Below are positions 11,909 through 44,795 of a stretch of DNA of 64,000 nucleotides, piece by piece. Origin of the DNA: Candidatus Poriferisocius sp. (GTDB taxonomy: Bacteria; Actinomycetota; Acidimicrobiia; Acidimicrobiales; Bin134); the NCBI RefSeq assembly GCF_965202595.1, contig NZ_OZ241836.1, forward strand, positions 215,095-279,094. The letters run 5' to 3'. The stretch's first letter is position 1, and each line of letters opens with the position of its first letter. The notes below the pieces were generated by a model that was given only the letters and a program-made list of their open reading frames with translations, ran no database searches and was not told the origin of the DNA. The position numbers and the translations under genes were made by a program.

Positions 11909-12002
11909 AGTAGGCCGCTTGGGACTCGAACAGGATGCCTTAGCGGTAGGCCGCTTGGGACTCGAGTGGAGCGCTTGAGAAGTAGGCCGCCTGGGACTCG
12001 AA
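11909..12002 (-). repeat. 36-bp tandem repeat: the 3' 22 nt of tRNA-Lys is present three times
   Basis: agtaggccgcttgggactcgaa at 11909, ggtaggccgcttgggactcgag at 11945, agtaggccgcctgggactcgaa at 11981. The last copy is the genuine T-arm/acceptor 3' half. Confidence 0.85.
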
Positions 12003-28624: not shown

Positions 28625-29497
28625 TTGCCCGTGGGTATTGCACTCTCCATCGCCATACCGATCATCGTGGTGGCCGCCGCGATCATGCTGGTGGCCGCGG
28701 CCCGCCGCCGGGAGACCATGGCCGCCGAGGGGCACCTGAACCGGGAGACCCGCCGCCGGGATCGCGGCCGGGTGGCCGTCGACGGCGAACCCGTTGCCGG
28801 CCCCACCGGCCGGGAGGTGGAGAGGGCCGCGGTGGTGGCTCGCCAATCCGCCGGCACCGAGGTGGTGGAGGCGGTGGATGCGTCGGTCGAGGAGTGGACC
28901 CCGCCCCATCCCGAGATGGTCGGGGTGAGCCGCCGCCAGTTCCTGAATCGCAGCACGGTGGCCATGATGGGTTTTGGCCTCAGTGGTTTCGGTGCCGCTT
29001 GCATAGCCTTCTTGTGGCCGCCGTTCGTCACCGGTTTCGGTGCCGACGTGAACGTGGGCCTGGTGGACGATGTGAAGTCCCGCATCAAGGATGAGAACGG
29101 TTTCCTTTATATTCCCGAGGGTCGCGCCTGGGTGACGGAGTACCCGCAAGCCGCCTTGCAGAAGGCGCAGAACGTGTACAGCGCTCCGGAGTTGGCGGGG
29201 ATCGAGTCCGGGCTGATTGCCTTGTTCCAGAAGTGCCCCCATCTGGGGTGCCGGGTGCCGTCGTGTTTGACCTCGCAGTGGTTCGAGTGCCCGTGCCACG
29301 GATCCCGCTACAACCAGGTGGGCGAGAAGCGGGGTGGGCCCGCTCCCCGGGGCATGGACAGGTTCGCCATGTCGGTCAACTCCAAGGGGGAGTTCATCAT
29401 CCGCACCGGCACCATTATCCAGGGGCCCCCCATCGGGGTGAACACCACCGGCCAGGAGCCCGAGGGGCCGAGCTGTCTTGGGGGAGCATCGCACTGA
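28625..29497 (+). CDS. Rieske [2Fe-2S] subunit
   Basis: CPHLGC and CPCHGS boxes. Confidence 0.85.
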   Translation: MPVGIALSIAIPIIVVAAAIMLVAAARRRETMAAEGHLNRETRRRDRGRVAVDGEPVAGPTGREVERAAVVARQSAGTEVVEAVDASVEEWTPPHPEMVGVSRRQFLNRSTVAMMGFGLSGFGAACIAFLWPPFVTGFGADVNVGLVDDVKSRIKDENGFLYIPEGRAWVTEYPQAALQKAQNVYSAPELAGIESGLIALFQKCPHLGCRVPSCLTSQWFECPCHGSRYNQVGEKRGGPAPRGMDRFAMSVNSKGEFIIRTGTIIQGPPIGVNTTGQEPEGPSCLGGASH

Positions 29498-29573
29498 TGT
29501 TCGAGTATCCCCGCCGATTCGATGCTCCAACCTGGTGGGGGCCGAGCTGTCTTGGGGGAGCATCGCACTGATG
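29466..29573 (+). repeat. 74-bp duplication of the Rieske-stop / cytochrome-c-start junction, encoding one 24-codon bridging mini-ORF
   Basis: ggccgagctgtcttgggggagcatcgcactgatg at 29466 and 29540. Mini-ORF 29497-29571 (MFEYPRRFDAPTWWGPSCLGGASH*). TGATG overlaps at both ends. Confidence 0.9.
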
Positions 29574-30917
29574 CCCCTGCTTGCCGCTTCTACCCAGCGC
29601 AATCTGGGCATGGCCATCGCGGTTGTCGCCATTGTTGGCTTTGCCATCTACCTCATCTACAACGTGTTGTGGGCGGGTCGGGAGGAGAGGGGATCGGAGC
29701 TGGAGCTGGCCCCCAACCGCAAGCCCTACATGAACGATCAGGAGCTGGAGACCAGAAGGTTGGACCTGGCCCTGGCCGGGGGGCTGGCAACCCTGGTCAT
29801 CATCGGCGTGGCCCTGCCCCTGTACTGGTTGGGGGAGCCGGGCCGCCAGCAGGGCTACGTGGAGGACTCCCGGAGGCAGTTCACCAGCCGGGGGGGCGAG
29901 ATGTTCGAGGAGCAATGCTCGGACTGTCACGGCGGCGGCGGTTTGGGTGGCTCCACCGCCACGACGATCGTGGACGACAGCGGCAATTTCGTGACCCCGG
30001 TCCAGTGGGAGGTTCCCGCGCTCACCACCACGCTGTACCGCTTCTCCGAGGACGAGGTGCGTCACATCCTCAATTACGGCCGCCCCCCCACCCCCATGCA
30101 AGCGTGGGGGGCACCCGGCGGAGGTCCTTTGACCACCCAGCAGGTTGACGAGCTCATCCAGTACATTCAGAGCATCCAGCTCTCCCCCGAGGAGGTGGAG
30201 CAAGAAGTGCTGGACGGCCTCATCCTTCAAGTTCGCGGGGACGTGTTGGAGGCCAACCCCGAGCTGGGGGCGCGATTGGCCGAGGCCAACGATGCGGTGA
30301 GGCAGGCGGGGGCCGACGAGGCCGCGGCCGAGGCTGCCGCCCGCAACCTGGCCGCGGTCGAGCAGGAGATTCGCGAGACCAGCGAGCAGTACATACGTGA
30401 TCTGCCCGGGGTGGATGGGGCATCGGCGGCCCGGGGGGAGCTGCTGTTCAACAACGGGGTTTACGGCTGCGCCCGCTGCCACACCCCGAGGGACTCGTGG
30501 CGGTTCACCGTACCCGAGGAAGCGCCCGGGGAGGATCCGAAGACCTACGAACAGGGTTCCCCCGAGGAGGCCGAGGTCGTCGCCCGGTTGGGGTCGCTGA
30601 TCCCCGAGCGGGAACCCGGCGGGGGTGCGTTCGGCCCCAACCTCACCAACGGGTCCACCAAGCGCCAGTTCGACACCGCCGGTGACCATGCCGGCTTCGT
30701 CGCCGAGGGTTCCCAGGAGGGGAAGGCTTTCGGCAACTTCGGCCAGGGCGACGGTGGGGGTCAGATGCCGGCCTTTGGTGTTTGCGTGGGTGACCGGGAC
30801 TCGGGTGAGCGCAGCCCGATCCACGGTTTCTGCACCTTGACCGACGGCAGTCCCCGACCCGGGATGTTGACCCCCGAACAAATCGACGACATCGTGGCTT
30901 ACGAGCGGGGGTTGTAG
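29571..30917 (+). CDS. Membrane-anchored diheme cytochrome c
   Basis: Two heme motifs (CSDCH, CARCH) and an N-terminal TM helix. The start is set at ATG 29571 (MPLLAAST...), within track ORF 29478..30917. Confidence 0.8.
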   Translation: MPLLAASTQRNLGMAIAVVAIVGFAIYLIYNVLWAGREERGSELELAPNRKPYMNDQELETRRLDLALAGGLATLVIIGVALPLYWLGEPGRQQGYVEDSRRQFTSRGGEMFEEQCSDCHGGGGLGGSTATTIVDDSGNFVTPVQWEVPALTTTLYRFSEDEVRHILNYGRPPTPMQAWGAPGGGPLTTQQVDELIQYIQSIQLSPEEVEQEVLDGLILQVRGDVLEANPELGARLAEANDAVRQAGADEAAAEAAARNLAAVEQEIRETSEQYIRDLPGVDGASAARGELLFNNGVYGCARCHTPRDSWRFTVPEEAPGEDPKTYEQGSPEEAEVVARLGSLIPEREPGGGAFGPNLTNGSTKRQFDTAGDHAGFVAEGSQEGKAFGNFGQGDGGGQMPAFGVCVGDRDSGERSPIHGFCTLTDGSPRPGMLTPEQIDDIVAYERGL

Positions 30918-30994
30918 GCAAGCATGGGAGAATTGTTCAGCTTCATTCCGGCCCCGTACCTGGCTTACGAGTGGGGGTTGTAGGCAAGCATGGG
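30896..30994 (+). repeat. 66-bp duplication of the cytochrome-c-stop / next-gene-start junction with a 19-codon mini-ORF
   Basis: ggcttacgag.gggggttgtaggcaagcatggg at 30896 and 30962. Mini-ORF 30924-30983 (MGELFSFIPAPYLAYEWGL*). The 6-nt stop-to-ATG spacing is preserved in both copies. Confidence 0.85.
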
Positions 30995-42356: not shown

Positions 42357-42370
<14 letters not shown>

Positions 42371-42461
42371 TGGTCACCGCATTCTGGTATGTCCGTTGCC
42401 GGCCACCGCGGGGGCTGCGACCGGCCCCCGGTGAAGACTGATGGTCACCGCATCCTGGTAT
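42357..42461 (+). repeat. 71-bp duplication of the nuoJ/nuoK junction with a 23-codon bridging mini-ORF
   Basis: ccggtgaagactgatggtcaccgcat.ctggtat at 42357 and 42428. Mini-ORF 42370-42441 (MVTAFWYVRCRPPRGLRPAPGED*). Confidence 0.9.
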
Positions 42462-42843: not shown

Positions 42844-44722
42844 TCTGGTGTGGCTGATCCCCGCCTTCCCGCTGGCCGGGGTTCTGATCCTCGTGGTTTC
42901 GGGGCGCAGGCTGGGCGAACCCCGGGCCGGCTGGCTGGCCACCGCCATGATGGGCGGATCGTTCGTGACCACGCTGCTGGTGTTCATCGGGCTCCTGGGC
43001 CACGACGGTGAGGAGCGTCAAAAGGTGCTCACCCTGTTCGAGTGGGTACCCGCGGGGCGGCTGGCGGTGGACATCGGCTTTCTGGCCGACCCGCTGGCCA
43101 TCACCATGGCCTTGTTCGTGACCGGGGTCGGAGCTCTCATCCACCTTTACTCCATCGGCTACATGCACGGCGACGAGGGGTTCTCCCGGTTCTTCGTGTA
43201 CCTCAACCTGTTCGCCTTCTCCATGCTCATGCTGGTGCTGGGCGACAACCTCCTGCTCACCTTCCTGGGCTGGGAGGGGGTGGGGGCCTGCTCCTACCTG
43301 CTCATCTCGTTCTGGTTCACCGACGAAACCAACGCCACCGCGGGCAAGAAGGCGTTCGTCACCAACCGGGTGGGCGACTGGGGCTTCTTGGTGGCCATGT
43401 TCCTGGCGTTCTTGACCTTCGGGTCGCTCCAGTACGGCGAGATCTTCTACGACCTGGAGTCCAACGGGGTGGCCGCTGGCACCGCGTCGGCCATCGTGGT
43501 GCTGCTGCTGGTGGGCGCGGCCGGCAAATCAGCCCAGTTCCCGCTGCACATCTGGCTGCCCGATGCCATGGCCGGCCCCACCCCGGTGTCGGCGCTCATT
43601 CACGCCGCCACCATGGTCACCGCCGGGGTTTACCTGCTGATCCGCATGAACCCGATCATTGCCGAGGCCCACGGGTGGGTGCCCGACCTGATCATGTGGT
43701 TGGGTCTGGGGACCGCGCTGATGGCCGCCACCATCGCGGTGGCCCAGAACGACATCAAGAAGGTGCTGGCCTACTCCACGGTCAGCCAGCTCGGGTTCAT
43801 GTTCGTGGCGGTGGGGTCGGGGGCCTACGTGGCCGCCATCTTCCACATGGTAACCCACGCCTTTTTCAAGGCCCTCCTGTTCCTGGGGGCCGGGTCGGTG
43901 ATCCACGCCATGCACGGCGATCAGGATCTTCGCCGCTACGGCGGTCTGGCCCGATTTCTGCCCGTTACCTCGATGACCTTCGTGGCCGGCTGGCTGGCCA
44001 TTGCCGGCGTTCCCCCGTTCTCCGGTTTCTGGTCCAAGGACGAGATCCTGGTTTACGCCTATGGCGAGAACAAGCTGCTGTGGCTGCTGCTGCTGGTGAC
44101 CGCGGTGCTCACCGCCTTCTACATGACCCGGCTGGTGCTCATGACGTTCTTCGGCCCCCGCCGCTGGGCGGGCGAAGCAGCCGATCCCCACGAGTCGCCG
44201 TGGACGATGACCGCTCCCCTGGTGGTTCTGGCCGCCCTGGCCGTGGTGGCCGGGGTGGTGAACCTGCCGTTTGCCTCCAGCACCCACTTCTTGGGGAACT
44301 GGCTGGATCCGGCCTTTTTCGGCAATGCCTCTCACCTGAGCCTCGGCGGGGGCACCAAATGGGTGCTGGCCGCCGTTGCCATCGTGGGCAGCCTTCTGGG
44401 AGTCTCGGCCGGGGCCGCGGTGTACGCCCGGCGCCGGGTGGATCCGGCTCGCCTCGAGCACCCCTTCCTGGCCCGGGCCTGGCGCATCGATGAGCTGGTC
44501 ACCGCCTTCATGGGTGGTCCCGGCCGCCGGGCGTTCGAGCGCACCACCCGGTTTGATGAGCAGGTGGTGGACGGCGCGGTCAACGCCACCGGCGCTTTGA
44601 TCCGCCGGGCCGGAACCAAACTGCGGGTGTCGCAAACCGGCCTGGTGCGCAGTTACGCCCTGGGTATCGCCGCCGGGGCAGTGGCACTTTTGGCCTGGTT
44701 CCTGTCGCGGGCGGGGTTGTGA
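42827..44722 (+). CDS. nuoL: NADH-quinone oxidoreductase subunit L
   Basis: 631 aa, with antiporter-like motifs (WEGVGACSYLLISFW, KSAQFPLHIWLPDAMAGPTPVSALIHAATMVTAG). Confidence 0.95.
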   Translation: MSTLVDLVWLIPAFPLAGVLILVVSGRRLGEPRAGWLATAMMGGSFVTTLLVFIGLLGHDGEERQKVLTLFEWVPAGRLAVDIGFLADPLAITMALFVTGVGALIHLYSIGYMHGDEGFSRFFVYLNLFAFSMLMLVLGDNLLLTFLGWEGVGACSYLLISFWFTDETNATAGKKAFVTNRVGDWGFLVAMFLAFLTFGSLQYGEIFYDLESNGVAAGTASAIVVLLLVGAAGKSAQFPLHIWLPDAMAGPTPVSALIHAATMVTAGVYLLIRMNPIIAEAHGWVPDLIMWLGLGTALMAATIAVAQNDIKKVLAYSTVSQLGFMFVAVGSGAYVAAIFHMVTHAFFKALLFLGAGSVIHAMHGDQDLRRYGGLARFLPVTSMTFVAGWLAIAGVPPFSGFWSKDEILVYAYGENKLLWLLLLVTAVLTAFYMTRLVLMTFFGPRRWAGEAADPHESPWTMTAPLVVLAALAVVAGVVNLPFASSTHFLGNWLDPAFFGNASHLSLGGGTKWVLAAVAIVGSLLGVSAGAAVYARRRVDPARLEHPFLARAWRIDELVTAFMGGPGRRAFERTTRFDEQVVDGAVNATGALIRRAGTKLRVSQTGLVRSYALGIAAGAVALLAWFLSRAGL

Positions 44723-44795
44723 TGTTCCGTAGCCGATCATCTGGCCCATTCCGGCAACTTTTGGCCTGGTTCCTGTCGCGGGCGGGGTTGTGATG
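44686..44795 (+). repeat. 71-bp duplication of the nuoL/nuoM junction with a 23-codon bridging mini-ORF
   Basis: acttttggcctggttcctgtcgcgggcggggttgtgatg at 44686 and 44757. Mini-ORF 44722-44793 (MFRSRSSGPFRQLLAWFLSRAGL*). Confidence 0.9.

Follow-up and report, generated by a model that had tools for sequence, protein, structure and literature searches.

At the junction between the genes coding for a Rieske protein and a dihaem cytochrome c in Candidatus Poriferisocius sp., an uncultured, sponge-associated member of the Acidimicrobiales, 38 bp of foreign DNA were inserted in this lineage alone, together with a duplication of the 36-bp target on either side. Such a footprint is that of a staggered two-ended integration, and its likeliest agent would be the organism's own type I-G adaptation complex, made of a Cas4/Cas1 fusion and Cas2, acting outside the CRISPR array. 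The likeliest history of the locus is, with moderate confidence, that a type I-G spacer was integrated off-target at the TGATG junction, Cas4/Cas1-Cas2 being the putative enzyme responsible. At the scale of the genome, about an even chance is given to a recent burst, in which more than 100 wrong-address spacer integrations by the type I-G Cas4/Cas1-Cas2 would have occurred in this wild sponge symbiont, purifying selection having spared only those that keep the frame within genes or restore a stop/start relay between neighboring operon genes.

Structure and origin of the Rieske/cytochrome c junction

The locus lies in a window of 64,000 nucleotides, the whole stretch of DNA that was analysed, whose numbering is used below. 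Four proteins are encoded between 26993 and 30917, namely, in this order, a b6-like cytochrome b, a subunit-IV-like protein, the Rieske protein, and the dihaem cytochrome c. The features of the junction between the last two are the following:

28625-29497, + strand: Rieske [2Fe-2S] protein gene, 290 amino acids (ORF; PF00355, E 2.2e-8)
29464-29499, + strand: target copy 1 (A1), 36 bp, exact direct repeat
29497-29571, + strand: relay mini-ORF, 24 codons, MFEYPRRFDAPTWWGPSCLGGASH (ORF, translation)
29500-29537, + strand: insert (B), 38 bp, TTCGAGTATCCCCGCCGATTCGATGCTCCAACCTGGTG, 58% G+C, unique
29538-29573, + strand: target copy 2 (A2), 36 bp, exact direct repeat
29571-30917, + strand: dihaem cytochrome c gene, 448 amino acids from the conserved ATG (PF13442, PF00034)

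The 36-mer GGGGCCGAGCTGTCTTGGGGGAGCATCGCACTGATG is found twice with a spacing of 74 bp (29464-29499 and 29538-29573), the two copies being identical at 36 of 36 positions and the whole repeat-insert-repeat structure measuring 110 bp; no matching repeat pair was obtained in 100 dinucleotide shuffles. Copy 1 contains the last 10 codons of the Rieske protein, which terminates in ...EPEGPSCLGGASH, followed by its TGA (29495-29497), as well as a Shine-Dalgarno-like GGGGGAG (29480-29486) and an ATG (29497-29499). Copy 2 contains the last 10 codons of the mini-ORF, a TGA (29569-29571), GGGGGAG (29554-29560), and the ATG of the cytochrome c (29571-29573), this ribosome-binding motif being located ten bases 5' of the ATG in the 36-mer. 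The TGATG at 29495-29499 joins the Rieske TGA to the ATG of the mini-ORF, and the one at 29569-29573 joins the TGA of the mini-ORF to the cytochrome c ATG, a geometry that arises because the period of 74 is 2 modulo 3 and because the insert has no in-frame stop. In terms of conservation, the Rieske C-terminus and its stop are kept in 19 aligned congeners, and the alignment shows that the TGATG overlap and the N-terminal codons of the cytochrome c are kept across the genus.

An earlier note on this DNA had pointed to a mini-ORF of 24 codons at 29497-29571 with a TGATG overlap at each end, and both observations are borne out, the first by the ORF listing and the translation, the second by the pentamers at 29495-29499 and 29569-29573. 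It had also stated that the last nine residues of the mini-ORF copy the Rieske C-terminus and that the structure starts at 29466; the copying is real but extends over ten shared residues (GPSCLGGASH), and the structure is indeed present there but starts at 29464. Finally, the junction had been described as carrying a duplicated 74-bp unit, a description that has to be abandoned, as the repeat covers 36 of the 74 bases only (1.49 copies) and the other 38 are unlike either flank.

At the nucleotide level, the 36 bp located 5' of the cytochrome c start are unusually conserved genus-wide (orthologues L003-L021), including at synonymous positions, which is consistent with these bases serving both as the Rieske tail and for ribosome binding. 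A regulatory RNA structure at the junction was considered and rejected, the fold of 29455-29600 being no better than that of shuffled sequences (z -0.17).

The 601 bases around the site were searched against 40 relatives, and 24 same-genus genomes were drawn. The region was found in all 24, always as two pieces (query 1-250 and 289-601) that overlap by 36 bp in the subject, and the junction is therefore single-copy in these genomes. In the alignment of 19 congeners, a single copy of the 36-mer with a conserved TGATG faces a clean 74-column gap, and the closest relative, G008, which is ~93% identical here, also lacks the insertion. The ancestral Rieske/cytochrome c junction was thus a single TGATG overlap. 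Since all 24 relatives have a single copy, the 38 foreign bp and the second copy of the 36-bp target were gained in this genome, in which the two copies have undergone no divergence so far.

Two other explanations concern the structure itself. An ordinary tandem duplication of the 74-bp junction stretch, half of which would since have diverged, is very improbable: although the genus does have genuine tandem duplications derived from the flanks at gene junctions, for example at the 3' junction of the cytochrome c gene in G008, and multi-copy arrays are present within the window, uniform decay cannot produce a step from 36 bp that are 100% identical to 38 bp that are dissimilar, and the relatives contain no counterpart of these 38 bp. 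Besides, the local alignment scores of the insert against the 60 bases preceding the structure and the 67 bases following it fall within the shuffle distribution. A simple tandem duplication in the sense of at least two complete head-to-tail copies was rejected as well, 36 of the 74 bp being repeated and the remainder having no ancestral counterpart, and the locus was not reported by TRF.

The second explanation is that of an assembly artefact hiding a truly single-copy junction, and the fact that the insertion is known from one assembly only speaks for it. Assemblers, however, do not create 38 bp of complex unique sequence, and more than 100 similar scars exist in the genome, with inserts that are all different and with a strong reading-frame selection (see below), a bias that errors would lack. 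In addition, the assembly consists of 2 contigs and the close relatives are represented by chromosome-level assemblies, all of which leaves very little room for an artefact. As far as the assembly is reliable, the structure of the scar and its lineage-specific origin can be regarded as established.

Regarding the mini-ORF itself, its peptide is missing from all 24 relatives and half of it is the copy of the Rieske tail; it is almost certainly a by-product. A mobile intercistronic element resembling MIRUs (mycobacterial interspersed repetitive units), or a functional micro-protein gene, would match the layout of the locus, in which the ORF overlaps both the upstream stop and the downstream start. 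Such an origin is nevertheless highly unlikely in view of this distribution of the peptide, and of an insert without sequence family members in this genome or its genus. In the same line, the locus shows one unit here and none in the 24 relatives, and no multi-copy allele indicative of tandem copy-number variation (VNTR) was seen.

The source of the insert was searched for at several levels. No second copy was found in the 3.1-Mb genome, and the best genomic match, a 16-mer at C1:1034597 (E 0.016), was rejected as a donor site since its flanks do not match. The insert was not found in 39 congeners either, the best seven candidates per genome being scored, nor as exact 21-24-mers in the IMG/VR and JGI metagenome contigs, and blastn against GenBank phages returned nothing. 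As a control, the three newest true spacers of the resident array were searched in IMG/VR and none of the three gave a match, so that the missing insert donor says little.

Resident type I-G CRISPR system and genome-wide scars

The genome contains a sole CRISPR array (C1:2234444-2239848), made of 75 repeats of exactly 36 nt each, separated by spacers of 35 nt (7), 36 nt (32), 37 nt (25), 38 nt (7 of 74), and 39 nt (3), with an AT-rich leader on the cas side. It adjoins a complete type I-G operon coding for Cas2, Cas4g/Cas1g, a Cas3 extension protein, Cas3g, Csb2, and Csb1, in which the Cas4g/Cas1g fusion is full-length and devoid of stops (765 bits for a cut-off of 560). When a spacer is added by Cas1-Cas2, the repeat is duplicated through staggered two-ended integration followed by gap repair. 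The sizes observed at the Rieske/cytochrome c junction correspond to those of the array, the 36-bp duplication being equal in length to the resident repeat and the 38-bp insert falling within the spacer range of 35-39 nt. In terms of sequence, the 36-bp target is identical to the CRISPR repeat at ~10 of 36 positions in either orientation, which, as judged by eye, is at chance level. The locus was not retained as a bona fide CRISPR array, since it has two copies and one insert, and its 'repeat' is coding sequence unrelated to the CRISPR repeat.

Within the array, two neighboring spacers at C1:2234765-2234920 are identical (GGTCGATATTGGCCATCATGGTGATGGTCTAAATTGC twice), which represents a duplicated repeat-spacer unit. 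Spacer 17 matches the organism's own chromosome over 37 of 37 positions at C1:2849915-2849951, in a low-G+C stretch encoding an EGNSAGGSAK (type II topoisomerase-like) motif, with a conservation of 89-91% in G005, G008, and G013. A TTN motif next to this chromosomal match was not found in either orientation.

A census of all direct-repeat pairs of at least 20 bp with a spacing of 24-160 bp was then taken, an insertion-type scar being defined as a locus with a single pair whose intervening DNA is unlike both flanks. Genome-wide, 274 such repeat-insert-repeat scars were recorded. Their counts by period are 7 at 70, 46 at 71, 37 at 72, 14 at 73, 9 at 74, 3 at 75, and 0 at 76-81, and the class with periods of 71-75 thereby amounts to 109 scars, whose sequences are unrelated. 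In this class, the length of the duplication has its mode at 36 (20 loci), followed by 37 (10), 38 (6), 39 (4), and 40 (3). This fall-off above 36 is what chance matches extending a 36-bp duplication would produce, and the tail of shorter duplications is that of copies mutated since. Comparison of the target ends with the repeat ends over the whole genome revealed a weak excess (P ~0.03), and a target-site motif was accordingly retained only as a weak one.

Among the 58 best-preserved scars, neither the targets nor the inserts are related to one another, and these scars therefore represent neither a repeat family nor a mobile element. None of their 58 inserts recurs elsewhere in this genome or its genus, to be compared with 1 of 74 true spacers, and the mean G+C content is 60.7% for the inserts, 56.6% for the spacers, and 63.2% for the genome. 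The similarity of the inserts to their own targets and flanks is no greater than to those of other scars; local template switching was rejected on this ground, own target-insert pairs being no more alike than mismatched ones. At the Rieske/cytochrome c locus, the insert and the duplicated Shine-Dalgarno region share a 9-nt match in reverse complement, the longest among the 58 scars, for which chance alone would give ~0.6 matches of this kind.

Three scars are located near the trailer end of the array, at less than 3 kb, and two of these are less than 1 kb away; for the counts of two within 1 kb and three within 5 kb of the array, the Poisson P is 0.002-0.006. The two at C1:2233610-2233717 and C1:2233920-2234028, 500-850 bp from the trailer end, show exact 36/37-bp duplications around inserts of 36 and 35 bp, respectively, and the insert of the former contains CCCCCGAA, as the CRISPR repeat does.

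Not all features of the census follow from the array. Period classes of 66 and 61-62 are present that the array does not predict, and the scar periods are ~1 nt shorter than those of the array. Grown mini-arrays, with a repeat, a first insert, a repeat, a second insert, and a repeat, were not found in the census.

A separate class consists of tandem duplications of ~36 bp without insert, with 111 loci at a period of 36, 67 at 33, 45 at 35, and a sharp fall at 40. Examples are found in the window at 11909, 21100, and 37027, and some of these duplications are multiples of shorter coding repeats. The class, whose mode equals the length of the CRISPR repeat, is common to this genome and G008 and is not shared with six other congeners.

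Cas1 was detected in 26 of 40 genomes, in the form of the Cas4/Cas1 fusion in 15 of them and of another Cas1 in ~10, and several complete genomes have none. The same census was run on 400 kb from each of seven relatives, with the following results per 400 kb:

This genome (two samples), type I-G: 13 and 18 scars of the 71-75 class, ~130 short-repeat clusters
G008 (closest relative), type I-G with the same 36-nt repeat: 5 scars, 131 clusters
G010, type I-G: 1 scar, 7 clusters
G015, type I-G: 0 scars, 15 clusters
G018, another Cas1 with a 37-nt repeat: 2 scars, 12 clusters
G022, no cas1: 0 scars, 16 clusters
G001, no cas1: 0 scars, 16 clusters
G047, no cas1: 0 scars, 11 clusters

The three cas1-less congeners have no scar in 1.2 Mb, compared to 31 in 0.8 Mb of this genome, an absence that fits the CRISPR model. 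The type I-G-positive G010 and G015 together have 1 scar in 0.8 Mb, and this near-absence shows that the possession of cas genes is insufficient. Moreover, short repeats of all sizes are ~ten times as numerous in this genome and in G008 as in the six congeners, and the insertion-type scars of G008 mostly have duplications of 34-38 bp and inserts of 24-35 bp, with periods of 60-73. The tenfold excess, the unpredicted periods, and the broad spectrum of G008 indicate that a lineage-specific factor is involved, which could be an adaptation that has escaped regulation, the loss of a fidelity factor, or an unrelated defect in repair.

The last of these leads to a further explanation, according to which the scars would result from a CRISPR-independent, lineage-specific 'duplication with filler', for instance by aberrant repair or replication in the lineage of this genome (G000) and G008, the match in size being coincidental and the relay ORF still being a survivor of selection. 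The ~130 short-repeat clusters per 400 kb of these two genomes, compared to 7-16 in six congeners of which two have the same type I-G system, are in line with this proposal, as are the many scars at periods of 56-70, the large class of insert-less ~36-bp tandem duplications, and the lack of a peak among the G008 scars at the period of its own array. It is harder to reconcile with a size class whose edges are hard at the range of the array (109 loci at 71-75 and 0 at 76-81) and whose duplications have a sharp mode at 36, with inserts that have no template in nearby or genomic DNA, and with the lack of scars in the cas1-less congeners. To our knowledge, no repair pathway gives an exact 36-bp duplication together with an unrelated insert of 35-39 bp. 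Taken together, these data make a CRISPR-independent origin the less likely one, though still a serious alternative, and off-target spacer integration is kept here as the preferred reading.

Reading frame and passage of ribosomes at gene junctions

The position of the scars relative to genes was determined with a rough gene call by third-position G+C, which covers 82% of the genome. Among the 109 scars, 72 touch the end of a gene, 29 are intragenic, and 8 lie in no called gene. The intragenic scars are in frame, with a period that is a multiple of three, in 21 of 29 cases. Those at gene ends have a period of 2 modulo 3 in 48 of 72 cases, compared to the 19% predicted by the array from its 35- and 38-nt spacers (P 1e-18), and the eight scars outside called genes follow the proportions of the array. 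This frame bias, which cannot come from the assembler, shows that selection has acted on the scars.

A stop and a start are duplicated together, with long frames on both sides, in 33 scars. An exact relay ORF, running from the start of copy 1 to the stop of copy 2, is found in 25 of them, compared to ~13% by chance (P 3e-16). The scar at the Rieske/cytochrome c junction is one of these 25 exact relays, its own geometry, taken alone, being not significant (~0.13). The idea that such bridging frames hand ribosomes on from one gene to the next thereby gains statistical support across the genome.

It is very likely, because of the genome-wide frame bias, that the scar was kept for rebuilding the junction twice and leaving a relay frame between the two genes. 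In such a relay, a ribosome would end the Rieske protein, restart on the mini-ORF, end the mini-ORF, and restart on the cytochrome c. A filler frame ending on the copied stop would deliver ribosomes to the true start, and a filler frame missing this stop would let them cross the true start out of frame and would thereby block it. The duplicated 36 bp would supply both genes, the first with its tail and stop and the second with its ribosome-binding site and start, and the scar would have survived because these 36 bp carry everything that both genes need. That ribosomes are actually relayed in this way is something we infer from the above bias.

Related systems, significance, and further scars in the window

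Off-target spacer integration is known mainly from over-expressing laboratory E. coli and from in vitro work, natural cases being few and putative. Integration at non-CRISPR sites giving new repeat-spacer units has been described by Nivala, Shipman and Church (2018, Nat Microbiol 3:310), as cited in PMC6698737, and off-target integration has also been seen in vitro (PMC6698737). For type I-G, integration on the spacer side is imprecise in vitro, 60-70% of the events taking place at the correct site (PMC10504553). The scars resemble such neo-CRISPR units in that a repeat-length duplication of an ordinary genomic target flanks an unrelated insert of spacer length, in a genome that contains an intact adaptation module and an array of the same sizes (36; 35-39). 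They differ in several respects: the work of Nivala et al. relied on over-expression of a type I-E system, whereas a wild genome with a type I-G system (Cas4/Cas1 fusion) is concerned here and the dependence on the enzyme is presumptive; no motif clearly like the repeat is evident in the target; the scar, one of ~109 in a single genome, is situated at a junction within an operon; and no growth into multi-spacer arrays is seen.

The MIRUs (Supply et al. 1997, as summarised in PMC12548453) offer another point of comparison. Like the present structure, they are, in that summary, short intercistronic inserts with a small ORF of their own, whose stop and start codons overlap those of the flanking operon genes and couple it to them, downstream expression being spared. 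Unlike it, they are described there as a dispersed homologous family of 40-100 bp with a variable tandem copy number, whereas the structure reported here is a one-off local duplication with a unique insert. Translational coupling by termination-reinitiation (Oppenheim and Yanofsky 1980; Huber et al. 2019, 2023, as covered in PMC12548453) is also relevant, since the ancestral TGATG is conserved in 24 of 24 congeners and the scar reproduces it twice; the difference is that two successive reinitiations, through a meaningless frame of 24 codons, would now be needed. Finally, the target-site duplications of transposable elements arise in a similar way, a staggered two-ended insertion followed by gap repair duplicating the target, but those of insertion sequences are far shorter than 36 bp, and terminal repeats, a gene, and a sequence family are all lacking in the case of the insert.

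Taken by itself, the locus is of modest practical consequence, both genes being intact and the mini-ORF probably being a harmless relay. If true, the interpretation proposed for the whole genome would allow the mutational cost that CRISPR adaptation inflicts on its own host in nature to be measured, and would make available a collection of sites used in nature by a type I-G integrase. The frame bias at junctions would constitute population-genetic evidence that the coupling of stop and start codons in operons matters, also for the subunits of one respiratory complex, whose synthesis must match. The genome would then represent a natural insertion-mutagenesis experiment in which termination-reinitiation has been selected at dozens of junctions, including that of the respiratory complex III operon, and would suggest a de novo route to MIRU-like intercistronic units.

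Other scars were observed in the window. At the other end of the cytochrome c gene (30895-30994), a second insertion-type one consists of a 32-bp insert between two 34-bp copies that differ by one mismatch, for a period of 66, and keeps a TAG-6 nt-ATG geometry. The same junction carries an independent flank-derived tandem duplication in G008 and another insert in G019, and is single-copy in most other congeners. In the nuo region, two more scars have the size of a CRISPR unit, with a period of 71 (42357-42453 and 44686-44795), the latter having a 39-bp repeat that ends in GTGATG and forming a relay ORF of 24 codons.
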